A stretch of 64,000 bases of DNA from NCBI GenBank assembly GCA_965217895.1, contig CBDCJV010000002.1, forward strand, positions 5,142,100 through 5,206,099. The letters are read 5' to 3'. Source of the DNA: Waterburya sp. (lineage in GTDB: Bacteria > Cyanobacteriota > Cyanobacteriia > Cyanobacteriales > Xenococcaceae). How positions within the stretch are numbered: the stretch's first letter is position 1; the number at the start of each line of letters is the position of its first letter. Made by a program: the position numbers and the translations under genes. Positions 5,168-19,541 of the stretch are shown in pieces. Below the pieces are notes generated by a model. The model ran no database searches. It was given only the letters and a program-made list of their open reading frames with translations, and was not told the origin of the DNA.

Positions 5168-5384
5168 CTTAAGTAGCAAGTAGCAGATAGCAGATAGCAA
5201 TGCTTTAAAGTAGTAATTAGCAGATAGCAGATAGCAATGCTTTAAAGTAGTAATTAGCAGATAGCAGATAGCAATGCTTTAAAGTAGCAAGTAGCAGATA
5301 GCAGATAGCAGATAGCAATGCTTTAAAGTAGTAATTAGCAATTAGCAGATAGCAATTAAGAAAGTTCAAAATTTGCTACTTAAG
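5168..5384 (+). repeat. Tandem array of ~37-bp units built from TAGCAGA/TAGCAAG heptamers, closed by a 12-bp inverted repeat
   Basis: Units at 5171, 5208, 5245 (37 bp), 5282 (44 bp) and 5326 (partial); CTTAAGTAGCAA (5168) / TTGCTACTTAAG (5373-5384). Confidence 0.92.
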
Positions 5385-5430
5385 TAAAGCTTGTCAATGA
5401 TAAAATTAAGTTACACAACTTAATTTTATC

Positions 5431-5650
5431 ATGAATAATCATAACATTTCGATACAAGATAGAACTAGAAATTTTGCGAATAGAGTAATAAAAGTCTATG
5501 TAGAATTAAACAAGAGAAAATACGATGATGCTGGTAAAGTTTTGTCTAAACAATTTCTTAGAAGTGGCACTAGCATTGGTGCAAACTGCTGTGAGGCTGA
5601 GTTCGCACAATCGAGAGCAGATTTTAGATCTAAACTAACTATTGCCTTAA
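5431..5650 (+). pseudogene. Four-helix-bundle protein (23S rRNA IVS / Avd-like family), 5' part, interrupted by integrated element
   Basis: RTRNFANRVI..LSKQFLRSGTSIGANCCEA..AQSRADFRSKLTIAL; family similarity stops at TTAAA 5647-5651. Confidence 0.9.
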
Positions 5651-5775
5651 ATTATATAACCCTCAATATTAATAATAAACAACAACAACAATGGTTGTAT
5701 TTTTTTCTGTTGAGTAAAGTTACAATTACCCAAATTCTATATTCTTTTACGAGTATTATGGTGTATAGTTAATAC

Positions 5776-6870
5776 ATGATGCTCACACTACAGAAAGGAA
5801 CTGACCCACACACAAATAAAACCATCTGGATAATGCTGGATGAAGACTATCAGGTAATCGAACCGATACAGCGTTATTTGACTTCTTTATGCGCTACCAA
5901 GTCGCCTAATACTGTACAAGCCTATGGAACAGATTTAAAGCGATGGTGGGAATTTCTCGACCATAAGTGCTTGGATTGGCGTAATGTAAATATTCATCAG
6001 GATTTAGAGGACTTTGCTTATTGGTTGAGAGTAGGAGATACAAAGGTGATTTCTCTACAGCCAGTAGAAGCCGATAGATCGGAGAAGACTATTAATAGAG
6101 CGATTACTGCTGTGTCAACTTTCTACGACTATCACCTGTGCAACCAAACAGTTGATTTTAGCGAGTTTGAGAGGTTTCATGCGATCTATAAAACGGGGAA
6201 CACCAGAGTCGGTACGACAGGTATATTGACTGGTATTGCCAAAGCAAAACCAACCAGGGAAAAGTTAGTCAAACTCAAAGAAACTAAGAAATTCCCAGGC
6301 TGTCTGACCGATGAGCAAATAGAAACATTAGTTGATGCCTGTAGCAATCTTAGGGACAAGCTAATGATTCTGATGTTTAACGGAACTGGCATACGTAAAG
6401 GTGCGCTTTGTGGCTTAAAACACGAAGACGTTGGGGATTTTGGAGATTACTTTATTCGAGTAGTCAGAAGAGAAGACAACCCTAATGGAGCATTAGTTAA
6501 GACAAAAGAGAGGACAATTCCAGTAACTAAGGAGCTGCTCCAACTATATGACGAGTACTTAATGAATGAGTATCCAGGCGTGGATTCAGAATATGTGTTT
6601 GTCAATATCTGGGAAGGGGATATCGGTGCGCCAATAATGCTGACATTGCCTAACAAAATACTTACAGGCTTGGAAGAAAAAACAGGTATTAGAGTTTATC
6701 CACATTTATTTAGACATACTTATGCCACTCGTCTTTTGAAAGCGGGATATTCACCAGAGAGAGTCAAATATTTGTTGGGTCACGCTAGTATTGCTACCAC
6801 TTTGGATGTCTATTCTCATGTCATCAACGAAACAAATCTATGGGAAGTAATCGAGAGAGAAGAAAAATGA
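5776..6870 (+). CDS. Tyrosine recombinase/integrase (TnpA-like)
   Basis: SPNTVQAYG SAM-like N-terminus; catalytic GIRKG, HLFRH, LGH...DVY. Confidence 0.93.
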   Translation: MMLTLQKGTDPHTNKTIWIMLDEDYQVIEPIQRYLTSLCATKSPNTVQAYGTDLKRWWEFLDHKCLDWRNVNIHQDLEDFAYWLRVGDTKVISLQPVEADRSEKTINRAITAVSTFYDYHLCNQTVDFSEFERFHAIYKTGNTRVGTTGILTGIAKAKPTREKLVKLKETKKFPGCLTDEQIETLVDACSNLRDKLMILMFNGTGIRKGALCGLKHEDVGDFGDYFIRVVRREDNPNGALVKTKERTIPVTKELLQLYDEYLMNEYPGVDSEYVFVNIWEGDIGAPIMLTLPNKILTGLEEKTGIRVYPHLFRHTYATRLLKAGYSPERVKYLLGHASIATTLDVYSHVINETNLWEVIEREEK

Positions 6871-8345
6871 GCTTAAATCAATTTGATTGGCTAGACGATT
6901 ATCAAGATCTATTTGAAGAAAAGCTACCGTCGCAATTATTATTAAATCCTCTGCTACAAAAAAATATATGGCATACAGTTAATGATTTAAACTTGAAGAT
7001 TAGTCCGCATCAAAAAGTATGGACTCTTAACTTTCAGAGTATTTCTCAAGATTGGTTTAGACTTCTTGTCAAGCTATACATATTAGTCAAAGCCAAACCA
7101 AATCAGCCTGGTAATACCATCAAAGGGTTTGTTATTTATTTGAGAGGATTCTCTAAGTTTTTAGACAAAAGAAATATTTACAGTCCCAAACATATAGATA
7201 ATCAAGTATTTGAAGAATTTGACTATTATCTAAAAGCTAAAGGGCTAAAAGATAGCTCTCTGGGACATTATCGAAGTACAATCTGCAATTTTTTCGATAC
7301 CTGCCGTACTGAAGGATGGATTGATGTTAATACTTATTGGTTTAGAGGCAAGCGCAACAGAGTTCATGTTAACAACGATGAAGTTGACTACATTCCCGAA
7401 GAAGTTTGGCATCAACTAGAAGAAAATCTACATTACTTGCCAGAACCAGTACAGAGGATGATCCTGGTAATAAAAACAACAGGTATTCGAGGTGGCGAAC
7501 TTTTAAATTTACCATTGGACTGTCTGAGGAAAAGAGGTAAGCAATGGAGGCTTCGTCTTACAACAGAGAAATACGACATTAAAGATGAAATACCAATAAC
7601 TGTTCCAGAATTAGTTGCAGTAATTAAAGAACAACAAAAATACATAAAACAAATTTTCGGTGATAAATTTGATAATTTATTTTGTAGCAATCATCCTGGT
7701 CATCATCGCAAAGATGGAACTCTTTCTTTTTCTCCTAACTCTAGTGTGATGAGTACAGGTACTTTTAACTTATGGCTGAATAGATTAGCCGAAAAAATTA
7801 ACATCCTTACTTCAGAAGGTGAAATCTACGAGTTTAAATCTCATCAATTTAGAAGGACAGTGGGTACTGTTATGACCAATGCAGGTGTCAGAGATTTAAT
7901 TGCTCAAAAATATCTCAGACATCGTAGTCCAGATATGTTGCCCCATTATCAACATCTTCTTAAGCAAACATTAGGAGATGAATTTGAGGAGTTGATTAAG
8001 GATAAAAAATATCATGATATATCGGGAAAAGTAGTCGAAATAATTAAAGGTAAAAATCCGATTACTGAATTTATTCGTCGCAAAATGTATCCTTTTACAA
8101 CCCAATACGGGGAATGCCATCGACCAATTTTAAAATCACCCTGTCAAACAGTTAATGCTTGCTGGAGATGCGAATATTGGCGAATAACCGATGGTGATTT
8201 GAATTATCTCAAAGAAGATTTTGCGAGAGTCGAGGAAGAATTAAAGGTAGCCAAAACACTTTCTATGACTAGGCAACAACAAGGATTAGAAGATGACAGG
8301 AATAACTTAAGTGCGATTATTCAAGGTGTAGAAGAAAACAGATGA
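6867..8345 (+). CDS. Tyrosine recombinase (TnpB of Tn554-like) with C-terminal Cys cluster
   Basis: TGIRGGEL, HQFRR, LRH.SPDM..HY; ECHR..PC...NACWRC; ATGA overlap with the upstream gene. Confidence 0.9.
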   Translation: MSLNQFDWLDDYQDLFEEKLPSQLLLNPLLQKNIWHTVNDLNLKISPHQKVWTLNFQSISQDWFRLLVKLYILVKAKPNQPGNTIKGFVIYLRGFSKFLDKRNIYSPKHIDNQVFEEFDYYLKAKGLKDSSLGHYRSTICNFFDTCRTEGWIDVNTYWFRGKRNRVHVNNDEVDYIPEEVWHQLEENLHYLPEPVQRMILVIKTTGIRGGELLNLPLDCLRKRGKQWRLRLTTEKYDIKDEIPITVPELVAVIKEQQKYIKQIFGDKFDNLFCSNHPGHHRKDGTLSFSPNSSVMSTGTFNLWLNRLAEKINILTSEGEIYEFKSHQFRRTVGTVMTNAGVRDLIAQKYLRHRSPDMLPHYQHLLKQTLGDEFEELIKDKKYHDISGKVVEIIKGKNPITEFIRRKMYPFTTQYGECHRPILKSPCQTVNACWRCEYWRITDGDLNYLKEDFARVEEELKVAKTLSMTRQQQGLEDDRNNLSAIIQGVEENR

Positions 8346-10120
8346 TGGAAATAAATTGGTCTAGAGATTATCAGCATGAATTTATTTGTCCTCATTGCGA
8401 TATTCAAGGTTTACGTTTAGCTGGCAAAGACAATTATACAAATAGGAAACTATTTAGATGCTCCAAATGTAGAAAAAGAATTTCTCAGTGTGTAAATATA
8501 AAATTTCCTAATAGTAATACTGGTATTAATTGGAACAAAGATTATAAAATAGGAGAGTTTGCTTGCCCCAATAAAGAATGTAATTCAAGGGATATCAGGC
8601 TTGCTAGCCAATCTAAAAAAAAGCAGCGTTTTACGTGTAATATTTGTGGAACTAAAACTAGAGAATCAATAGATCTTACGGAAAGCAATTTAGGTCAATA
8701 TGCTCATAAAAGACCAGTTAAGCCATTTTCTTTTCAAGACGATAAATGGGATATTAGGGCAATTAAATCACCAGCAAATAAACAAGAGAAGATTCTAATT
8801 GCTAACTTTCATACTGTAAAAACAAACTGGTTTAGAAATTTAACCAAGCACTACACATACCACCTCTGTAAGCTCAATAAACCTATAGGTGCAATTGAGT
8901 ATCATTTGATTAATCTTCGTATTTTTTCTCGGTATTTAGTAGAGAAAAATATAACTAATATAAATTTAATTAGCCGAAGTTTAATTCTTGATTTTCTCGC
9001 TTGGGATAATACGGGTGTAGACGCTACCAGAAAAAGACTCTCGACACTTAGAGATTTCTTCTGGACTGGTAATGTGCAGAATTGGTTTGTACTTGACCCA
9101 GATCTTGTAAGAGATAATGATTATCCTAAAGCGAAGGTAAGCAATCCTGACCCAATACCAGATAGCGTTCGAGAACAGATTGAAAGCAATTTACATAAGC
9201 TACCAGAGCCTATTGCTAGAATGTGGATTATTGCTTTTTTCACAGCAATGCGACCTGGAGAACTAGCTTTATTAAAGAAAGGCTGTTTGGTACAAGAGGG
9301 TAGCCACTGGAGCATTACTTGGCAACGTGGAAAAAACCGAGATTTTCACACAGTTCCAATTACAAGAATCATTGCCAAAGTAGTTCAAGAACAGCAGGAT
9401 TACATAGAGCAATTATGGGGAACTGAATGGGATTACTTGTTTTGTCATTATCAGCGACCTTCAAGCACAAGGCAATATAGCAATATAGATCCTGTTCAAA
9501 AAGTAATACCGAAAAATAATAGCCTGTTTTATGGAGCGATTGAATATCTAATCGAAACAGAAGATATTCGGGATGATAATGGTAAGTTAGCGACATTTAG
9601 TCCACATTTAATTAGGCATACACGCCTAACTCAATTATTTGAGCAAGGACACGACTTGTCAGTAGTTAGTGCATGGGCTGGACACAAAAGATTGGCAACA
9701 ACGAGTAATTTTTACACTCAAGTTAGTTGTGAACTAATTGAAAAAGAAGCAGGTCATATTCAAAAAGCTCTGTTTAATGCAGATGGTCAATACCATCAAT
9801 ATGAATCATTACCTAAATCCTTCTGGAAAGATCCTCAAGCTCATAAATTAGATCTTCCTGGCGACCATATTAACACACCTATTTATGGCTACTGTGGGCT
9901 ACCGTTAAATGAGCGTTGCAACAAGTTTAGAGCTTGTTATACTTGTCACTCTTTTGTTGCCTTCCCTGAGAAACTTGGACAATACATCAAACTCCGTGAT
10001 GAATTGAGAGCCAAAGAGTCACGAGCTTTAGCGAATGGTCAAGGTGTATTAGTAGAACAATTTAGTAGACAAGCCGACCAACTAGACAAAATAATTGCAT
10101 CGTTACAGGAGGCAGCATGA
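8342..10120 (+). CDS. Tyrosine recombinase with N-terminal zinc-ribbon repeats
   Basis: CPHC/CSKC/CPNKEC/CNIC; AMRPGEL, HLIRH, AGH..LATTSNFY; C-terminal YCGLP..CNKFRACYTC; ATGA overlap. Confidence 0.9.
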   Translation: MMEINWSRDYQHEFICPHCDIQGLRLAGKDNYTNRKLFRCSKCRKRISQCVNIKFPNSNTGINWNKDYKIGEFACPNKECNSRDIRLASQSKKKQRFTCNICGTKTRESIDLTESNLGQYAHKRPVKPFSFQDDKWDIRAIKSPANKQEKILIANFHTVKTNWFRNLTKHYTYHLCKLNKPIGAIEYHLINLRIFSRYLVEKNITNINLISRSLILDFLAWDNTGVDATRKRLSTLRDFFWTGNVQNWFVLDPDLVRDNDYPKAKVSNPDPIPDSVREQIESNLHKLPEPIARMWIIAFFTAMRPGELALLKKGCLVQEGSHWSITWQRGKNRDFHTVPITRIIAKVVQEQQDYIEQLWGTEWDYLFCHYQRPSSTRQYSNIDPVQKVIPKNNSLFYGAIEYLIETEDIRDDNGKLATFSPHLIRHTRLTQLFEQGHDLSVVSAWAGHKRLATTSNFYTQVSCELIEKEAGHIQKALFNADGQYHQYESLPKSFWKDPQAHKLDLPGDHINTPIYGYCGLPLNERCNKFRACYTCHSFVAFPEKLGQYIKLRDELRAKESRALANGQGVLVEQFSRQADQLDKIIASLQEAA

Positions 10121-10962
10121 GCAGCGGTAACGATGATACAAGAGAGTTTAGAGTCAATAACCTCAAAAAGACTCAGGAACAGAGGAAGCAAGAATCTCAG
10201 GATCGAGTTTATCAAGCTATTGAGCGATTGCAGAAACTCAATGCCAAGATCAACTTTCACACTATAGCTAGAGAAGCGCAGGTTAGTGTTAGTTATCTCT
10301 ATAAATATCCAGAGATAAAGCAACATATAGGAGTGCTAAGAAGCAAACAAAACTCTTTACCTGTTTCTCCTGTAGCCAAACCTAATTCTACGTCTCATGG
10401 CAAAGTAGTCACCCGTCTTCAAGAGAGAATCAAAAAGCTGGAAGCGGAGAATAAAGAACTCAAACGTAAGTGTGAAGCTTTAGCTGGTCAAGTTTATCGA
10501 GTTCATTATTTGGAATCTCAGGTAGAAAGATTACAGAAACAAAATGAAGACTTGAAAAGTAAATTGGGCGAACAAGAAATTGCCAGAAAAGTTACACCTA
10601 TTGACAAAAAGAGAAAGACCAAATCTGCTGCTTTCAAGGATGTCCAATCGGAATTAGATGAGCTGGGAATTACTCTGAATCCAACTCTCACTAAAACTAT
10701 TAAGGTAGCCAGCGAAGAAACTGTATTAGCTGCAATTGAAGCACTCAAAGAGCAATCTTTCAAACAAGATATTCCTAACCCTGGCGGTTGGCTGAACAAG
10801 GCAATCAAAGAAGGTTGGATAAAAGCAGAACCCACCTCTAGTAAGCCATCAGTTTCCCCACAACCAAAAATCGTTACTGCTACAGATAAAGCAAATAAGA
10901 AATTAATTTCTCCTAACAAGCTCAAGCAATTAAGCAATTTATTCAACAATCAAGATGACTGA
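10117..10962 (+). CDS. TnpC/DUF6262-like coiled-coil DNA-binding protein with extra C-terminal domain
   Basis: AIERLQKLNAKINFHTIAREAQVSVSYLYKYPEIK plus a long coiled coil; C-terminal NPGGWLNKAIKEGW; ATGA overlap. Confidence 0.75.
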   Translation: MSSGNDDTREFRVNNLKKTQEQRKQESQDRVYQAIERLQKLNAKINFHTIAREAQVSVSYLYKYPEIKQHIGVLRSKQNSLPVSPVAKPNSTSHGKVVTRLQERIKKLEAENKELKRKCEALAGQVYRVHYLESQVERLQKQNEDLKSKLGEQEIARKVTPIDKKRKTKSAAFKDVQSELDELGITLNPTLTKTIKVASEETVLAAIEALKEQSFKQDIPNPGGWLNKAIKEGWIKAEPTSSKPSVSPQPKIVTATDKANKKLISPNKLKQLSNLFNNQDD

Positions 10963-12274
10963 TAACAAATTCCCCCCCACTAACATAGAAGCTGAAGAAG
11001 CCATATTAGGAAGCATTTTATTTGACCCTGGTGCTATTAGTATTGCTGCTTCTATCCTCCCTGTTGAGGCATTTTATGTTGCTGCCCATCGTCATATTTA
11101 CAAAGCAGCATTAGAGTTACATAATAAAGACAAGTTGACAGACTTTATGGGCATTTCTACTTGGTTAAAAGACCATAAATCATTAACTAAAGCAGGAGGT
11201 ACAGCCAAGTTATCTCAACTGCTTAATCGTACTGTCTCAGCAACTAATATTGACCGCTACATTAATCTGGCTTTAGAAAAGTATCAGCGTCGTCAACTCA
11301 TAGCAACAGCTAATGAAATTGAGGCTTTGGGATATGATAATGCTACCGAACTAGAAACAGTTTTCAATACCTCAGAAGAGAAAATATTTAACCTTACTAC
11401 CAACAAGCAAGACAAATTCAAACCTATACCGATTGACGATTGTCTGGCATCAGTATTCAACAAAATAGAACAAGGTTCATCTCCTGCCTATTCTACTGGA
11501 TTAGATGATTTAGATGCTCTGATTGGGGGATTAATTAAACAAGATTTGATTGTAATTGCTGCTAGAGCTTCTATGGGCAAAACTTGGTTGGCTTGCCATC
11601 TGGCTAATCACATTGCCAGCGAGCAACAAAAGCCTGTAGTCTTCTTCTCGGCTGAGATGTCGAGCGAACAGCTAACTAAAAGATTCCTCTCAATGCACTC
11701 TGGTATTGATTCTCATAGGCTAATACACAATGAAATTTACGAGGATGAATATGATGTTTTAGTTAATGGTTTGACTCAATTGGCTGAATTACCTATCATC
11801 ATCGACGATACTCCTGCTACTCAGCTAACACCTTCTAAAGTTCGTTCTGTCCTGCGCAGAATCGTTTCTGAGAAAGGCGAACTAGGCTTAGTAGTCTTAG
11901 ATTATATTCAGAAGCTTGGCGACAGAGCAGCAGGGAATAGAGCGCAGACAGTAGGTAAGTTTTCAGGGGCATTTAAAGACATTGCTAAAGAGTTTGACGT
12001 TCCTTTTGTGGCATTGGCTCAAATCAATCGAGGTGTTGAATCTCAGGCAAATAAACGCCCTTTAATGTCTGATATAAAAGACAGTGGTGATATCGAGCAG
12101 GACATGGATTTGGGTTTGATGCTGTATCGGGACGATTACTACAACGATGATACTGACAACTTAAGCATAATGGAGATAATTGTAGGAAAGAATCGTAACG
12201 GTGGAACAGGGACTTGTAAAATTTTGTTTGAGCTAGATACAGGGATTTTCAAAAGTTTAAACAGTGTAAAATAA
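10955..12274 (+). CDS. dnaB: Replicative DNA helicase DnaB (element-borne copy)
   Basis: PPTNIEAEEAILGSIL; Walker A AARASMGKT; SAEMS; VVLDYIQ; AQINRGVE..KRPLMSDIKDSGDIEQD; KNRNG. Confidence 0.93.
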   Translation: MTDNKFPPTNIEAEEAILGSILFDPGAISIAASILPVEAFYVAAHRHIYKAALELHNKDKLTDFMGISTWLKDHKSLTKAGGTAKLSQLLNRTVSATNIDRYINLALEKYQRRQLIATANEIEALGYDNATELETVFNTSEEKIFNLTTNKQDKFKPIPIDDCLASVFNKIEQGSSPAYSTGLDDLDALIGGLIKQDLIVIAARASMGKTWLACHLANHIASEQQKPVVFFSAEMSSEQLTKRFLSMHSGIDSHRLIHNEIYEDEYDVLVNGLTQLAELPIIIDDTPATQLTPSKVRSVLRRIVSEKGELGLVVLDYIQKLGDRAAGNRAQTVGKFSGAFKDIAKEFDVPFVALAQINRGVESQANKRPLMSDIKDSGDIEQDMDLGLMLYRDDYYNDDTDNLSIMEIIVGKNRNGGTGTCKILFELDTGIFKSLNSVK

Positions 12275-12398
12275 TCGCAAGTAATTCAATATATTTTAAT
12301 ATATATTAAACAGTACAAATGTATACTAGACTAGGCTTCCTAGTTTGCAACTCTGAAGTGAGCATTGAATTTACAATTATTTTTTATAAGAATTTTAA

Positions 12399-14444
12399 AT
12401 GATAACCACAGATATATTTAACACAGATGTTGTAAACAAAGTTAGAAAGATAAAGCTCCCTATTTCCAAAGTTATGCTTCCATTATTTGAAGCAGTAGTA
12501 AATTCAATTCAATCTATTGAAGAAGTTAAAAAAGAAAGCATCAAAGATGGTGTTATTCAAGTTATTATCAACAGACCTTTTGAGGAGATAAGACTTCTTG
12601 ACGGTGGAGATACCTCTCCAGTAGAAGGATTTACTGTTATAGACAATGGAATAGGGTTTAATACGCAAAATTATAAATCTTTTCTAACTGCGGATAGCTC
12701 ACACAAACTTGTCAAAGGATCTAAAGGTGTAGGTAGATTCTTATGGCTAAAAGCATTTACAAATGTAGAAGTAGAAAGCTATTACCAAGAATTAGGAAAA
12801 TACTATCATCGTAAATTTAATTTTACAAGTGCAGAAAAACCAATATCTTTTCATGAAAATAAAGTTATTGATTCTACAGATATTAAAAATAAGACTACTA
12901 TTAAGCTGAAAGGTCTACAAGGTCACTATAAAATAAAATGTCCTCAAGATATAGAAAAAATAGGACTTAAAATCTTTGAGCATTGTATTTCATATTTTTT
13001 ACTAGAAAATGTCCCTACTATAGAAGTTATTGACGGAGAAAAGAGTCTAGATATTAATAAATTCTTTGCTGAGGATATAAAAAAATATACTGAAACTAAA
13101 GACATTAACATTGGAAAATGTAATTTTAATATTAAAAGCCTTAGATTTTATAACAGCAGTACATCCGATCACAGACTATTTTTCTGTGGACATCAGAGAG
13201 TAGTTTTAGATGAAGATCTCAGTCAGTATATAGTTGACTTATCACCTACAAGAAAAATCAGAGATGAAAATGGAAAGTTGTTTAAGTATTTAGCTTTTGT
13301 TTCTGGAGAATATTTAGACAATAATGTTAACTCTGAAAGAACTAGCTTTACTATCTCTGAAGATTATGATTTGTTGACTTCTAAAGAGTTTGGAGATGTA
13401 TCTTTTTATGATCTTAAAATGGCAGTAACAGAAGTTATTGACAATACATTGTCTCCATATCTCAAACAAATACAAGAAAACAAAATAGAAAGGTTTAAAC
13501 AGTATATTCGGAAAGATGCTCCCGAATATCGTCCTTTATTAAAATATGCTTCAAAAGAATTAGAGCATCTTTCTCCTAGTTTAAATGATACTCAGCTTGA
13601 GTTTCAGCTACATGGATTAATGTCCCAGTTTGAGATTTCATTAAAAGAGACTGGAAAACAAATATTAAGCGATCCAATTGATTGCTTTGAAAAATATCCT
13701 GAATATAGTCAGAAATATCACGAATTTTTAGAGCAGTACACAGATTTTGGTCAGGCAAAATTAGCAAAATACGTAGTTCACAGAAAAATAATTCTGGAAC
13801 TTTTCAAGAAAAATCTTAGAAAAGATGATGACGGCAGATTTAAGCTTGAAAAGGATATTCACGAAATAATTTTTCCTTTGAGACGAACATCTGATGAGAT
13901 CAATTTTGATGAGCAAAACCTTTGGATTATTGATGAAAGGCTAACATATCATAGATATTTATCTTCAGATCAGGCATTAGATAGTCTAGAAGATCTAAGT
14001 GTAAATAGTACTAGACGACCAGACCTACTTGTATTCAATAATCCTATAGCTTTGGTGGAAGGAGAACAACAGCCTTACTCTTCCGTAGTTATAGTTGAAT
14101 TTAAACGTCCTATGAGAGATGGTTATTCTGAAAAAGAAAATCCAGTAACTCAAGTTTACGATTATGTAAGAAAAATCCAGTCTGGCAATTATGAAGACGA
14201 GAACGGTAGGCTAATAAGCCTAGCAAATAGCACTCCCTTTTATGTATACATAATTTGTGATTTAACATCGAAAATAAAAGAATTTGCTGAAAATGCCACT
14301 TTTTTCCCGACACCAGATTTAGGGGGATATTTTGGATACAATACAAGACTTAATACTTACGTCGAGATTATTTCTTTCACAAAATTAATCAATGATGCAG
14401 AAAAAAGAAATAGTGTATTGTTTAAGAAACTTCATATAAATTAA
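12399..14444 (+). CDS. GHKL (HSP90/MutL-like) ATPase fused to a C-terminal PD-(D/E)xK-type nuclease; candidate defence protein
   Basis: LFEAVVNSIQS, IDNGIGF, GSKGVGRF (Bergerat fold); RPDLLVF..VIVEFKRP..TQVYDY. Confidence 0.75.
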   Translation: MITTDIFNTDVVNKVRKIKLPISKVMLPLFEAVVNSIQSIEEVKKESIKDGVIQVIINRPFEEIRLLDGGDTSPVEGFTVIDNGIGFNTQNYKSFLTADSSHKLVKGSKGVGRFLWLKAFTNVEVESYYQELGKYYHRKFNFTSAEKPISFHENKVIDSTDIKNKTTIKLKGLQGHYKIKCPQDIEKIGLKIFEHCISYFLLENVPTIEVIDGEKSLDINKFFAEDIKKYTETKDINIGKCNFNIKSLRFYNSSTSDHRLFFCGHQRVVLDEDLSQYIVDLSPTRKIRDENGKLFKYLAFVSGEYLDNNVNSERTSFTISEDYDLLTSKEFGDVSFYDLKMAVTEVIDNTLSPYLKQIQENKIERFKQYIRKDAPEYRPLLKYASKELEHLSPSLNDTQLEFQLHGLMSQFEISLKETGKQILSDPIDCFEKYPEYSQKYHEFLEQYTDFGQAKLAKYVVHRKIILELFKKNLRKDDDGRFKLEKDIHEIIFPLRRTSDEINFDEQNLWIIDERLTYHRYLSSDQALDSLEDLSVNSTRRPDLLVFNNPIALVEGEQQPYSSVVIVEFKRPMRDGYSEKENPVTQVYDYVRKIQSGNYEDENGRLISLANSTPFYVYIICDLTSKIKEFAENATFFPTPDLGGYFGYNTRLNTYVEIISFTKLINDAEKRNSVLFKKLHIN

Positions 14445-14524
14445 AAACTTATCGTATAAAGTATATACAACGATATAATCTATGTCACAAAATATGTGTG
14501 GAATTTTTAGGTCATATAATTTAA

Positions 14525-14667
14525 AAGAAGCAAGTGAAACTCGCTACTGGATATTACTTTTAATTGATAATAATATTGTCTCAGAAACAAAATTGGCAAT
14601 GATGCTAGATGAATTAAATCAAATAATAAAAATTCTGATTGTAACAACGAAAAAGCTGAAAGAGTAA
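14525..14667 (+). pseudogene. Four-helix-bundle protein, 3' part
   Basis: (K)EASETRYWILLL..ELNQIIKIL..KKLKE* continues KLTIAL; the join gives 120 aa. Confidence 0.9.
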
Positions 14668-14717
14668 TTGCTACTTGTTATCTGCTATCTGCTACTTTAA
14701 AGCATTGCTACTTTAAA
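14665..14717 (-). repeat. Heptamer/37-mer array inverted relative to 5171-5360
   Basis: TAATTGCTACTTGTTATCTGCTATCTGCTACTTTAAAGCATTGCTACTTTAAA. Confidence 0.9.
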
Positions 14718-14725
14718 CCCATTTA

Positions 14726-15478
14726 TTACTCGATAAAAACAAAGTAGCTTAGAGTACACACAGTAAAAATCAAAAATAGATTAACAATAAGCTGTACTTT
14801 AATAGCCAAACTAGTACTTTTTTCAAACTGATTCATTTGATGTCTCAAACGATCGAGCCTGAATTGCAGATTGGCATCTCGCTCTCTACGCAGAGACATT
14901 TCTTGTTTAACAATACTTTCTACGGTTTCGTTTAGGTTGTGGGGCGTTAACTGTTCAAATATACTAACTTTTTGTTCGATTTTAGCCAAAACCTTATCAA
15001 CGACGTTTAATTTATGGCTTAGGGCAGAATCTTGTGGCAAAGAGTTTTCTGTTGTAGACTTGCTAAAGTGTTTTTCTACCAATTTCAACGCTAATTGGAA
15101 ATAGCCTTTGTGAACGTGTCTAATTGCATCGGCTAATTCTTGGGCAGTGGTGTTTTTTAGCCAATAGCCTTTTGCCCCCAACTCCAAAGCATCAGCAATA
15201 TCCTGCTTTCGGTCATGGATACTAAGCATTAGAACTTTGGTATCGGCAAATTTTTGGGCAATGGCTTTGGTAGCAGCAAAACCATCCATCACTGGCATCT
15301 CAATATCCATTAAAACTATGTCTGGCTTGAGTTTTTCTACCTGAGCGATCGCAATTTCTCCGTTTTCAGCAAAACCAATTACATTTAGGTCTAACTCTGA
15401 TTCTAAATATGATGCTAAAGTTTTGCGGACAAAATTTTGATCATCGGCTATAAGGACATTAATCATCGCCATCTTCAT
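14726..15478 (-). CDS. Response regulator receiver protein with coiled coil and C-terminal TM helix
   Basis: VLIADDQ..PDIVLMDIEMPVMDG..GAKGYWLK; hydrophobic C-terminus; start uncertain. Confidence 0.85.
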   Translation of the reverse strand: MKMAMINVLIADDQNFVRKTLASYLESELDLNVIGFAENGEIAIAQVEKLKPDIVLMDIEMPVMDGFAATKAIAQKFADTKVLMLSIHDRKQDIADALELGAKGYWLKNTTAQELADAIRHVHKGYFQLALKLVEKHFSKSTTENSLPQDSALSHKLNVVDKVLAKIEQKVSIFEQLTPHNLNETVESIVKQEMSLRRERDANLQFRLDRLRHQMNQFEKSTSLAIKVQLIVNLFLIFTVCTLSYFVFIE

Positions 15479-15756
15479 CTCTATTCTTGGTAAATTAAAC
15501 AAGTTTTGAAAAACTATCGAAAAACTGACCAAATTATAATGTATAAATCTCTAGTTGAAGTATTAACAATTTATTAGCAAAGTACATCTCGAAAATAAGT
15601 TTGGTTTTAAGCTTTAAATCGTCAACGTAAGATCTTAAGTAATATAGGGTAATTGAATGTTAGCTTCATGACAATAGACTTAAAATAAAAACAAGCTTAA
15701 ATAGCCTTTTATCGGCGGTAATCTCCATATACCATATACTAGAATCAATAATCATT

Positions 15757-18700
15757 GTGACTTCACTATCCTTGTTATCTAATGTTGAACAATTTTTAGA
15801 ATATTGCAGTCATTCTAGTGCCGATGCTTTTGCTGCCTTTAGCGAACTTTTAAATAGCTTGAAATCTCCTGAGACGCAGGCTCAAAATAGGCGGTTTTTT
15901 GGCTTAATTTATCAGACTTGGCAGTCGAAAAATCAGCAAGATTATTACTTTTCTTTTGTTACTCAAACGGTTAAAACCTATAGTGGCGATCGCCGTGAGC
16001 TTTTACTTTTATTATTTCCCAGTATTTTTGCCCCTGAAGAATGGTCGTTTACCTTTTATGAAGGCATATTACGCTATCCTGCCGAGGAATTTTATACCCG
16101 TCGGGTGGTAGAGTTAGGCTGTGGCAGTGGCTGGATTACTCTGGCGATCGCCTTAAATTCTTTGCCTGAAGTTATCTATGGAGTTGATATCAATCCACGG
16201 GCGATCGTCTGTTCGCAATTAAATCTATATTTGAACGCTTTAGACGAACAGGGAAATCCCATTTTAGATAGGGAACAAAAGACTTTAATTGACCGCGTTA
16301 AATTTGCTCAATCAGATTTACTAGAATTTTTTGACGATTATCCTCATCCCCTCGATCGCATTGTGGGCTGTATTCCTCAAGTACTCAATCCAGAATTGGA
16401 AGTAATGCGAGATTTGGTTAATCAAGGTGCTAATGACGAATTTCTCCATTCTTTGAGCAATTATTGCGAAAAACAGGGCTATGTAGAAGATCAATTTGGC
16501 TTAGGCTTGTTAGCTAAGGCGATCGAGCAGTCAATTCAATTACTCAGACCTACGGGTAAAGTTCTCTTTAACTTTGGGGGCAGACCAGGTGCATCAGTAC
16601 TAGAGCGATTGATGACTAGAAGAGGGTTAGAAATTCGCCATATCTGGCAAACCAGAGTCGAACAAGATCCTGATACGGATATTTCTAGCTTAGTAAAGAT
16701 CGAACAGGCTACAGGTCATCGGTTTGAGTTTTTTATGACCTCCCGTAGTAATGTGCCAATTAGTGCTGCTACCGCCCAAGTTTACAGCCAGCATGGAGGC
16801 AGAATATATCACTCTGTCTCCGTATACGAAGGGGTTTTGGCTTATCCTAACTGGCTCAAGCAAATTTTCGCCGTACTACAGCATCCTAGTTTGCAGGGGG
16901 TAAAAAGCGCACTAGATTTGACGGAAAATGATGCAGATGTGGCAGAAGAAAGATTTTACTGGCTAGCATCCTTATTTAGTTATCTTAATAACCAGAGCCA
17001 TTTTCCCTATGGACTGACAGCAGGAGAACCAGGATTACGCGATCGCATTACGGCTTATTTTCGCAACTATCATTCAATTCTTTGGCAGCCTGATGATTTA
17101 ATTATTACCCCATCTAGAAAAGAACTAATTGCTAATCTGTTAACAATTTATGAGCCATCGTTAATTGTTATCGATGAGGGATTACAGCAGCTACTACCCG
17201 TAAGTTGGCATGGCAGTCAGCAGGTTATTGAAGCACCGCGACGCATCCCCTTAGTTGGCAAATTAATGGTCAAGCTACGTCCGCAGCTTGTAATTACAGG
17301 ACTCAAAGCTTTTGAAATGACTGCACAAGAGCCTTTTGAATCTTTAGTCAATACAGCCAAAGAAATTGGCGCACTATTGATAGTGGATATTTCTGATAAT
17401 TTAAATCTTTCTAGCAACCCCGTTGATAATGGTTTGTTTGAATATCTAGCAGATCGCGGCTTGCCCGATCATGTAATTTTAGTTGCAGACTCGATCAAAA
17501 ATAGACTTTATCCAAGCTTATCTTTATGTATCTGCATAACTAACTCAGAGCCAATTCAACAAGACTTAATTAGAGCAGCAGAGTTGAGCTACAGTCGCGT
17601 TTGCCTGATTACCCAATATTTCTATCAGCAGCTTTTAGAACAGTTATTACACTTCCAGACTACCAGAGTGCAGCCAGCTAATAGGGAGCTTGATAAGTCT
17701 CAAAGCTTTTTTACCTTAGATCGTTCAGCCAATGCCACAAGAGCCTTTGCTCATCCTGCAATTAAAGAAAGTGAATTACCTTTTAAACCATCAACTATTC
17801 GCCTAGACTATGGTGAAAACTGTTTGCCATCTCCTAAAGCACTCAATAAAGCGATCGCCGAAGCCTTTGCCAGACAGGAGATCACCTCAGAAGAATGTGA
17901 AGTATACAAACCCCTATCTGCTATCTGTTCGCAAAAATACGGAATTAAATACGGCGATCGCGATAATTTTATTTATGGTTCAGGAGTAGCATCATTATTT
18001 AGTGCGGTGGTGCAGCAATGCCGTCAAGAACAAGGAGCTTTTATCTTTCCCCAAGGTGCTTACGGTTATTTCCGAGCAACCCTAGATTTCTATGGAGTTG
18101 GAGTACAAACGGTATTGGGAAACCCAGCCCAAGGTTTTAAAATCGATTTATCTAACCTAGAACAGATTCTCAAAACCACTGCTAATCCTTGGCTTTATCT
18201 TAATGCACCCATTTCTAATCCCACAGGAGCGTTATATTCTGCTCCAGAATTACAGTCAATTATTCAATTAGCTTGGCGGTATCAAGCAAAAGTTGTCTTA
18301 GACACGATTTTTTCTGGTCTAGAATTTGACCAGTCCCAACCCAAAACTGATTTATCATGGCTGCAAGATCGCCGTCACAGCAACTCTAGTAACTTAATCT
18401 TACTAGGTGGCATTTCCAAGGAATTTTCCGCAGCAGGGATACGTTTTGGCTATTTATATTCTCCCAGTGCCACTATAGTTAGACAAATAGCAGAATTTAT
18501 TCCTGGTCAGCTTCCCCAGACTACTATGTATGCTATGCGTCGATTTTTTGAGGGGGTGGTCAAAGACGATGCTGAACTTATTCAACATAGAGAAGCTCAG
18601 AGTCAACTTCTACAGCAAAGAGCCAAACAGCTAACAGCAGTATTGCAGCAATCTGGTTGGACAGCCATTGACCCACGAGGCGGATTGTTTTTAGTAGCAA

Positions 18701-18945
18701 AACCAAGTTTCCTCTTAGGCAAAACAGTATCTTACAAACAAGATAATGTTAGATATGAGACAGTCATTGATGGAGATTCTATTACTACCGTTTTATTTTC
18801 AAGTGTTGGACTAACGATCAATGGTGCTACCTGGACTGGGTTGCCAAACTATTGCCGTTTTGTCTTATCAGTTTCCGAATCTGAGTTTCAGGAGGCTTTG
18901 CAGCGAATTAAAGAGTTTTACAGTTCATTTGAGGTTGAACTATAG
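15757..18945 (+). CDS. Methionine S-methyltransferase, plant-type two-domain (SAM methyltransferase + PLP aminotransferase-like)
   Basis: PSIFAPEEWSFTFYEG, ELGCGSGWI, YGVDINPRA, RIVGCIPQVLNP, SLSNYC..QGYVEDQFGLGL, FNFGGRPG; C-terminal ISNPTGALYS, LDTIFSGL, GGISKEFSAAGIRFG. Confidence 0.88.
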   Translation: MTSLSLLSNVEQFLEYCSHSSADAFAAFSELLNSLKSPETQAQNRRFFGLIYQTWQSKNQQDYYFSFVTQTVKTYSGDRRELLLLLFPSIFAPEEWSFTFYEGILRYPAEEFYTRRVVELGCGSGWITLAIALNSLPEVIYGVDINPRAIVCSQLNLYLNALDEQGNPILDREQKTLIDRVKFAQSDLLEFFDDYPHPLDRIVGCIPQVLNPELEVMRDLVNQGANDEFLHSLSNYCEKQGYVEDQFGLGLLAKAIEQSIQLLRPTGKVLFNFGGRPGASVLERLMTRRGLEIRHIWQTRVEQDPDTDISSLVKIEQATGHRFEFFMTSRSNVPISAATAQVYSQHGGRIYHSVSVYEGVLAYPNWLKQIFAVLQHPSLQGVKSALDLTENDADVAEERFYWLASLFSYLNNQSHFPYGLTAGEPGLRDRITAYFRNYHSILWQPDDLIITPSRKELIANLLTIYEPSLIVIDEGLQQLLPVSWHGSQQVIEAPRRIPLVGKLMVKLRPQLVITGLKAFEMTAQEPFESLVNTAKEIGALLIVDISDNLNLSSNPVDNGLFEYLADRGLPDHVILVADSIKNRLYPSLSLCICITNSEPIQQDLIRAAELSYSRVCLITQYFYQQLLEQLLHFQTTRVQPANRELDKSQSFFTLDRSANATRAFAHPAIKESELPFKPSTIRLDYGENCLPSPKALNKAIAEAFARQEITSEECEVYKPLSAICSQKYGIKYGDRDNFIYGSGVASLFSAVVQQCRQEQGAFIFPQGAYGYFRATLDFYGVGVQTVLGNPAQGFKIDLSNLEQILKTTANPWLYLNAPISNPTGALYSAPELQSIIQLAWRYQAKVVLDTIFSGLEFDQSQPKTDLSWLQDRRHSNSSNLILLGGISKEFSAAGIRFGYLYSPSATIVRQIAEFIPGQLPQTTMYAMRRFFEGVVKDDAELIQHREAQSQLLQQRAKQLTAVLQQSGWTAIDPRGGLFLVAKPSFLLGKTVSYKQDNVRYETVIDGDSITTVLFSSVGLTINGATWTGLPNYCRFVLSVSESEFQEALQRIKEFYSSFEVEL

Positions 18946-18987: not shown

Positions 18988-19541
18988 TTGGTTAAGGTGT
19001 CAGGAACAAATCTCCTGATAACTTGGCAAATGGTAATTTCAGCACTACTTATATTTGCTGTCCCCGTATTAGTTTATCGGCTAGTAAAGCAAGATTATCG
19101 ATTATGCCTTGGTGCGATCGCCTTATTTTCTATCTTGGCGTTTATTATCTATAGTGGCTATCTCATTGGCGCAAATGAGCTAGCCTTCGGTGGGACTCGT
19201 CCCCTAGCTGAATTCATTCAGAGTGAAGGGTTAGCAGATCGACCTATTTTAGTTTACGACAGGCTTCTGCCGTCCCTTGCTTTTAACCTCGACCGCAATA
19301 TTATTACCTTAACAACGGCGAAGTAGAGCGTGAAACTCAGTTTGAGATCGACGATAAGTGGAAACAATATTGGCTCGATATCCGTGAACCAGTTTCAGTA
19401 GAACAGCTAAGAAGTCTTGTCCAGTCTCCTTCTGTTCTAGTAACAAAAAAGCTGCCCGATGAGTGGAGTTGGATCGCCCAAAACTATAGCCAGTCTCAAT
19501 CCTTGGCTAAATGGGTCATTTACTATCAACCCAAAATTTAG
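18988..19541 (+). pseudogene. C-terminal remnant of a membrane protein (ArnT-like glycosyltransferase?), frameshift near 19310
   Basis: TM segment, ILVYDRLLPSLAFNLDRNIITL; continues in another frame as EVERETQFE..WVIYYQPKI*. Confidence 0.45.

Follow-up and report, generated by a model that had tools for sequence, protein, structure and literature searches.

A plant-like methionine S-methyltransferase of a cyanobacterium with a predicted one-site PLP pseudo-dimer at its C terminus

The stretch of DNA analyzed here, 64,000 nucleotides of a Waterburya sp. contig (CBDCJV010000002.1) that we refer to as the window, carries a gene (15757..18945, forward strand, GTG start, without internal stop) for a 1,062-aa protein whose sequence places it among the Group III (plant-like) methionine S-methyltransferases (MMT), a published group to which it is a new addition. 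A sequence-only reading of the locus, made by a model, had described a protein of this length with motifs of an S-adenosylmethionine (SAM)-dependent methyltransferase and an aminotransferase-like C-terminal domain, and both were found: the motifs ELGCGSGW and GVDINPR lie in the N-terminal part, residues 102–190 give weak Pfam methyltransferase matches, and residues 681–1051 match PF00155 (E 5e-35) in a Pfam search of the 1,062-aa protein. The length and the PF00155-bearing C-terminal domain fit the ~115 kDa layout of Group III. That reading assumed two domains, whereas structure models and fold searches divide the protein into three, namely a methyltransferase domain, a domain with the fold of pyridoxal 5'-phosphate (PLP) enzymes that lacks the small domain, and a complete PLP-fold domain. 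The methyltransferase domain (residues 63–361, 15943..16839), recognized by homology to the bacterial enzyme MmtN, contains a GxGxG motif at 16111–16134. It is preceded by a helical extension (residues 1–62, 15757..15942) that is seen in the model and is poorly conserved, with none of 60 columns at 95% conservation. The middle domain (residues 362–648, 16840..17700) was recognized by the structure model, Foldseek, and VIA, and the C-terminal domain (residues 649–1062, 17701..18942), of class I/II aminotransferase fold, by PF00155 and residue conservation. All these features are on the forward strand. A scan of 15400–15800 found no promoter or terminator.

The plant-type MMT identity put forward by the sequence-only reading is borne out by the nearest Atlas clusters, which are plant methionine S-methyltransferases (0.99–1.00) together with a Myxococcota cluster, by the best PDB match of residues 1–380, which is MmtN (7VVV; E 2.7e-9), and by residues 80–362, which are 54–58% identical to those of named plant MMTs. 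Plant MMTs are collinear with the protein over its full length (36.6–39.6% identity) and share its methyltransferase core motifs. MmtN (Group I/II) has a homologous methyltransferase domain but is a trimeric, single-domain protein of ~305 aa, unlike the three-domain query. In the pairwise alignment with 7VVV, from which residue correspondences were counted by hand, the GxGxG motif is kept, the SAM-binding residues D69 and C121 of MmtN align with D144 and C205, and the phosphate-pocket residue P169 of MmtN aligns with V243; the equivalent of MmtN S101/L102 is ambiguous, and S186 and L188 of the query are conserved in 119/120. Family-wide conservation was counted in 166 non-plant and 30 named plant proteins, with seven unnamed plant-like proteins counted apart. 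D144, C205, and Y236 are identical in 166/166 non-plant and 30/30 plant proteins, and E324 is found in 165/166 and 30/30, respectively.

The sequence-only reading had also taken bacterial enzymes to be short MmtN forms only, a premise that is wrong because long bacterial forms have already been published (Peng et al. 2022; PMC9135737), and of the 7,993 candidates scored in our search 408 are homologues with an E of 1e-20 or better. According to that paper, Group III combines plant MMT with plant-like MMT of some Deltaproteobacteria and Oligoflexia, is unlinked to genes for dimethylsulfoniopropionate (DMSP), and makes S-methylmethionine (SMM) for a purpose that is hard to predict in these bacteria. 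These bacterial enzymes have the length and layout of the query, with Silvanigrella, Fluviispira, and Spirobacillus proteins being 39–40% identical to it, and like the query they lack linked DMSP or methionine-cycle genes; the layout is called dual-domain there, in contrast to the three domains found here, and the query comes from a photosynthetic cyanobacterium instead. The word "cyanobacteria" does not occur in the main text or searchable supplements of PMC9135737 (a scope without Fig. 7 and one scanned file), and our literature searches, with Williams 2019 and Fig. 7 of Peng et al. outside their scope, found no report of a cyanobacterial Group III MMT. As far as these searches reached, the host lineage is therefore new for the group. 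A table in a 2025 review (PMC12489301) has the entry "Not present in microbes" for methionine S-methyltransferase, which conflicts with Peng et al. (2022) and with the homologues found here.

Relatives of 93% identity are named Waterburya sp. and Chroococcales cyanobacterium, one of 70% is named Pleurocapsa sp., and the closest homologue group (63–79%) carries Pleurocapsa and Xenococcus names; judged by these names, the carriers appear to be Pleurocapsales. The next homologues (38–47%) come from Aliikangiella, Pleionea, a Moorea metagenome-assembled genome, Bacteroidota, a rotifer, and others. The protein named as coming from the rotifer Rotaria (P0116) is a long-form MMT with an intact PLP site and is nested among bacterial rows in the trees described later. 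Thirteen unnamed forms of 1,200–1,800 aa (P0325, P0327, P0328, P0330, P0331, P0333, P0334, P0341, P0343–P0345, P0354, and P0355) contain the entire MMT module behind an N-terminal addition of 250–870 residues in which Pfam finds nothing at E 1e-5, and one orthologue (L085:6003–9311, G457) has an in-frame insertion of ~30 residues where the middle domain begins.

Residues 362–648 have no Pfam match. The model of this middle domain (predicted local distance difference test, pLDDT, 92.7) matches class I aminotransferases and C-S lyases in Foldseek (E 1.3e-10), VIA aligns 202 of its residues (Z 18.4, root-mean-square deviation 2.9) with targets of 370–390 residues that are covered only to about residue 290, and the middle domain of a divergent homologue matches PF00155 (E 8e-4). 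By these models it is a PLP fold-type-I large domain without the small domain. Its own lysine position is variable, with lysine in 65 of the 166 non-plant proteins, and it is predicted to be an inactive partner half. The divergent MMT L004:1417–4647 (G070; 29%), whose middle domain still scores with PF00155, comes from a genome of 69% GC within the same phylum.

The whole chain models at a predicted template modeling score (pTM) of 0.90, and the last domain of this model matches entire aminotransferases (target TM ~0.8). Co-folded as two chains with PLP, the two halves scored 0.92 versus 0.00 for the best control, with at least 96% contact agreement between runs and a partner pLDDT of at least 86; roughly 116/157 solved and 2/215 mismatched pairs reach the co-folding mark. 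In the predicted interface, residues 413–419 and 609–619 are joined to 687–692, 742–746, 771, and 891–896. Fold-type-I sites are completed by residues of the other subunit, such as Tyr85 and Gln98 in 1-aminocyclopropane-1-carboxylate (ACC) synthases (PMC1282579, PMC8580319). Segments 413–419 and 609–619 meet the PLP-site loops, and we read the middle domain as a fused-in partner. The Y418-x4-G423 motif (17008..17025), conserved and at the predicted interface, likely lends its tyrosine to the PLP site of the other half, and the similarly placed and conserved E609-x2-Y612-S-R614 loop (17581..17598) is predicted to line the substrate pocket there. In this prediction the two domains pack as in an aminotransferase dimer and make up a pseudo-dimer within one chain that has a single active site. 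Fold-type-I class I/II enzymes (aspartate and prephenate aminotransferases, ACC synthase, C-S lyases, and GntC) have the fold of both domains and share their canonical site residues with the last one, at an identity of only ~15–20%, but they are homodimers with two sites, whereas the query is a predicted fused asymmetric pair with one. A search for stand-alone tandem PLP proteins of 235–751 aa without the methyltransferase gave a sole candidate (P0229), whose start falls within the final strand of the methyltransferase; it appears to be truncated and was rejected. Our literature searches turned up no function assigned to the last 700 residues of an MMT.

The last domain contains the class I/II residue set, with K888 (18418..18420), the lysine of the GGISKEF motif that the sequence-only reading had pointed out, as predicted Schiff-base lysine, D849 as ring aspartate, N821 as O3' asparagine, Y769 as stacking aromatic, R896 as phosphate arginine, and R1034 as carboxylate arginine. 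These residue types match the ACC-synthase site as described in PMC8580319 and PMC1282579. Among non-plant proteins the set is nearly invariant: Y769, N821, and D849 occur in 166/166, R1034 in 165/166, R896 in 164/166, and K888 in 163/166 (two gaps, one glutamine), and the residues contributed by the middle domain are conserved as well (Y418 and R614 in 166/166, Y612 in 162/166). Plants retain D849 (30/30) and mostly R1034 (25/30), but K888, Y769, and Y612 are found in none of the 30 plant proteins, R896 in one, R614 in four, and Y418 in 14, so that plant MMT lacks three of the residues K888, Y769, Y612, and R896 and mostly lacks the fourth, whereas the query has all four. The seven unnamed plant-like proteins have PLP-site residues as in plants, and nine of the 30 plant proteins have a lysine one column after the K888 position. 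Deep sampling of the family by 50%-cluster representatives, 82 of at least 880 aa among 150 listed, gave K888 in 75, R896 in 77, and the site residues in 75–79 of 82. PLP binding by the C-terminal domain, raised as a possibility by the sequence-only reading, is likely in view of these near-invariant residues. The Mesotaenium protein (P0211) has asparagine at the K888 column, lysine at R896, and otherwise the most bacteria-like motif among plants; it is possibly an intermediate in the loss of the PLP site.

We searched the 99.9% complete genome for enzymes that could consume SMM. Plants pair MMT with homocysteine S-methyltransferase (HMT), whereas the sole PF02574 match in this genome is a 1,192-aa MetH and no stand-alone HMT was found in the PF02574 search. 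The only PF02784 matches are LysA and SpeA, and neither a PF16867 lyase nor a PF01053 enzyme was matched. SMM is therefore left without another obvious sink, and a plant SMM cycle, as envisaged by the sequence-only reading, is unlikely because there is neither a stand-alone HMT nor an extra gene of SMM-decarboxylase type. Of the 61 family genomes, 12 have stand-alone frames of HMT size (313–354 aa), and none of these 12 is among the ten with MMT, a pattern that is suggestive at most because kin genomes are not independent. The search for DMSP genes proposed at the same time yielded no downstream DMSP-synthesis genes in the genome or beside the MMT gene. A Group I-type cluster, in which single-domain MmtN accompanies genes for an SMM decarboxylase, an aminotransferase, and a dehydrogenase, was not found here, and in a check for dsyB/dsyG against NCBIfam four PF00891 proteins have no match at E 1e-20.

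The MMT gene is patchily distributed within one family, being found in ten of 61 family genomes and six of 39 genomes of the genus. Among 401 sampled genomes of the order it is present in seven, all of the same family, with none in the 373 genomes of other families, and among 401 sampled genomes of the phylum it is present in five, three of which encode distant forms (28–44%). Trees were constructed from 56 of 203 proteins of at least 900 aa (26 hand-picked and 30 by a 58% identity filter); they were quick trees with SH-like approximate likelihood ratio support only and no Group I/II rows, and approximately unbiased (AU) tests were run with the longest branch removed. In both the full-length and the methyltransferase-only trees several starred branches split the four Pleurocapsales rows from the ten plant rows; the former nest among bacterial rows, beside unnamed proteins and an Aliikangiella/Pleionea group. 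A clade of plants and Pleurocapsales is rejected (p-AU 1.7e-12 for full length, 1.4e-5 for the methyltransferase only). The suggestion that the gene could inform on the origin of plant MMT is thus not upheld, and the phylogenetic comparison with plant and long bacterial forms that had been proposed as a check placed the protein among bacterial ones. An endosymbiotic or cyanobacterial origin of plant MMT was rejected on the nesting, the AU tests, and the lack of the gene in the other families. The Mesotaenium protein groups with land plants, which points to a date before the origin in land plants that PMC6284425 proposes.

The gene appears to be no newcomer to its host. Exactly five HIP1 octamers (GCGATCGC) lie within it (15986, 16144, 17039, 17851, and 17954, spanning 15986..17961; strand not assigned), in agreement with the at least five from which the sequence-only reading had deduced long residence. 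The count alone is weak proof, since five is ordinary for this genome, which has a mean of 3.55 sites per 3,189 bp and at least five in 30% of such blocks; the window as a whole has 51 sites versus 0.45 in shuffled windows. Better evidence comes from shared positions and codon use. The site at codon 130 is common to all 11 orthologues listed out of 13 and that at codon 699 to ten of 11, in both cases including pairs with saturated synonymous sites, and the gene lies at the 49th percentile of 1,107 long open reading frames (ORFs) in GC content at third codon positions and at the 48th in codon bias. All three domains are under purifying selection (ratio of nonsynonymous to synonymous rates 0.03–0.21; methyltransferase 0.03–0.07, C-terminal domain 0.10–0.21). 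Long residence in the host lineage, the deduction itself, is thus supported.

Upstream of the gene lies a lower-GC, HIP1-free island (~5200–14700; no sites and GC 0.353 in 6000–14500) with two phage-integrase genes, a DUF6262 gene, a DnaB helicase gene, and a HATPase-like gene. A related locus (L007) carries 5227–10141 inverted and has a third integrase-like ORF within the 99%-identical part, and we take the three integrase-like ORFs to resemble a recombinase-in-trio element. The island site is empty in two relatives (L006, L086). Recent arrival of the MMT gene with this island was rejected because two relatives without it keep the gene and its upstream neighbor and because the composition of the gene is average for the genome. 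A divergent response-regulator gene (14726–15532, reverse strand) beside the MMT gene is kept in 93–95% relatives only. Downstream, a 112-aa ORF (18988–19326) has no Pfam match; the ORF and the DNA behind it match another region of the genome (G000:C2:1627730–1628308) at 55–73% in shifting frames, which makes the ORF a probable degenerate copy of some longer gene. Gene neighbors differ between MMT-bearing clades, and among clustered loci no operon or partner genes are conserved across lineages. Directly downstream of MMT, one sister clade alone has a Sulfotransfer_5 (PF19798) gene (L020:4575–5420, L083:9947–10867, L085:3812–4618); PF19798 is matched in all three genomes of that genus and was not found in the Waterburya genome. 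In one genome (L082, G458:C61), which has a second MetH-like match, metH lies ~4.7 kb from MMT.

Our preferred interpretation, held tentatively and at somewhat less than even probability, is that the Group III MMT makes SMM and that its one-site PLP pseudo-dimer consumes it, most likely by eliminating dimethyl sulfide (DMS). Judging from homology, the N-terminal domain very likely would methylate the sulfur of methionine with SAM. The middle domain very probably would stand in for a second subunit and lend Y418 and the E609–R614 loop to the K888 site, as the models predict, and this site probably would bind PLP and turn over. That SMM is its substrate is a guess with an even chance of being right. 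Abstraction of the alpha proton would be followed by elimination or transamination, releasing DMS (or dimethyl selenide), a four-carbon oxo acid, and ammonia. We favor DMS elimination because a carboxylate-binding arginine would promote chemistry at the alpha proton and because a sulfonium leaves readily. As a precedent, ACC synthase turns SMM into DMS, 2-oxobutyrate, and ammonia. Taken overall, DMS release by the PLP site is a guess that leans toward the unlikely. The enzyme would serve as a one-gene outlet for surplus methionine and SAM or for selenomethionine; disposal of selenium is a plausible use since Escherichia coli with plant MMT releases tenfold more volatile selenium (cited in PMC10585787). 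Plants would have kept the methylation of methionine and lost the PLP site.

Several observations weigh against this interpretation. F852, in 166/166 non-plant proteins, replaces the usual tyrosine three residues past the ring aspartate, a close homologue (P0003) has K888Q, and one sister clade drifts in the DYGEN and TYSR motifs. The best solved relative of the C-terminal domain is found at E 3e-10, the best NCBIfam model gives 83 bits against a cut-off of 415, and because no solved relative is close the substrate of the PLP domain cannot be read from homology; Atlas searches with this domain returned generic aminotransferase clusters only. E687 aligns with the ordinary aminotransferase "GE" and is not diagnostic for a sulfonium. 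We dropped its equation with the sulfonium signature Glu47 of ACC synthase, as glutamate is common in aminotransferases and there is no residue-level alignment. In MocR/GabR-type proteins, which appear among the fold matches, a PLP site persists although they are not enzymes. The co-folding result may reflect likeness to solved aminotransferase dimers. In the methyltransferase domain, the methionine-binding residues E127, R132, and E250 of MmtN have no one-to-one match in the pairwise alignment, with E127 aligning to N211; plants too carry N, T, or S in this segment, and the query agrees with plant MMTs there.

The pseudo-dimer could instead bind PLP and an amino acid purely as a sensor, like GabR or MalY, that tunes the methyltransferase, with SMM as the end product. 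GabR, PdxR, and MalY are among the fold matches, plant MMT works without K888, and the domains are rigidly packed in the full-chain model, all of which suit a sensor. Against it, deep branches hardly vary in the full catalytic set, R1034 included, and no sink for the SMM so made was found in the genome; we consider it unlikely. Slightly less probable is a step toward DMSP, in which decarboxylation or transamination of SMM at the PLP site would give DMSP-amine or DMSP-aldehyde, with DMSP then completed by housekeeping enzymes. Threonine-phosphate decarboxylases have the same fold, and PLP enzymes for such steps are encoded in Group I mmtN clusters (PMC9135737). DsyGD (PMC11306096), an S-methyltransferase fused to a second enzyme domain in some cyanobacteria, is a precedent for fusion with the next-step enzyme that also favors our preferred interpretation, although it belongs to the transamination route, acts on 4-methylthio-2-hydroxybutyrate (MTHB), and has another second domain. 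One of four tested Group III strains made DMSP, a result that also counts against our preferred interpretation, but three made none (PMC9135737); DMSP-pathway neighbors of the MMT gene are lacking, and R1034 at the alpha-carboxylate position would argue against decarboxylation.

The PLP site might also act upstream, as an aminotransferase that forms methionine from its oxo acid and passes it to the methyltransferase. The top sequence and fold matches are indeed ordinary aminotransferases, including the methionine aminotransferase YbdL, yet SMM would still be without a sink and a cation would better suit the conserved acidic quartet E609, D684, E687, and E889 close to the site, and we regard this as improbable. 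Nothing here separates these three alternatives firmly. A plant-style SMM cycle and a cyanobacterial, endosymbiotic source of plant MMT have in their favor the full-length identity to plants and the long residence of the gene, but are largely refuted and very improbable given the lack of stand-alone HMT in the MMT-bearing genomes of the family, the restriction of the gene within the order, and the AU tests.

Under the preferred interpretation, bacterial long-form MMT in general would be a two-step enzyme that methylates methionine and then converts SMM to DMS (or dimethyl selenide) at a one-site PLP pseudo-dimer, which we put forward as a rather doubtful proposal. If true, some Pleurocapsales and many other bacteria would get from methionine to DMS with a single gene, by a route around DMSP and methanethiol, and plant MMT would descend from this enzyme in a half-disabled form that allows SMM to build up. 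Should DMS or DMSP prove to be the product, gene-based surveys of sulfur-gas production would be overlooking a family that numbers hundreds. The cyanobacterial host itself is a modest range extension and no clue to plastid origin. A named lysine, a predicted partner domain, and the contrast between bacteria and plants make both the purpose of SMM and the role of the C-terminal region directly testable.

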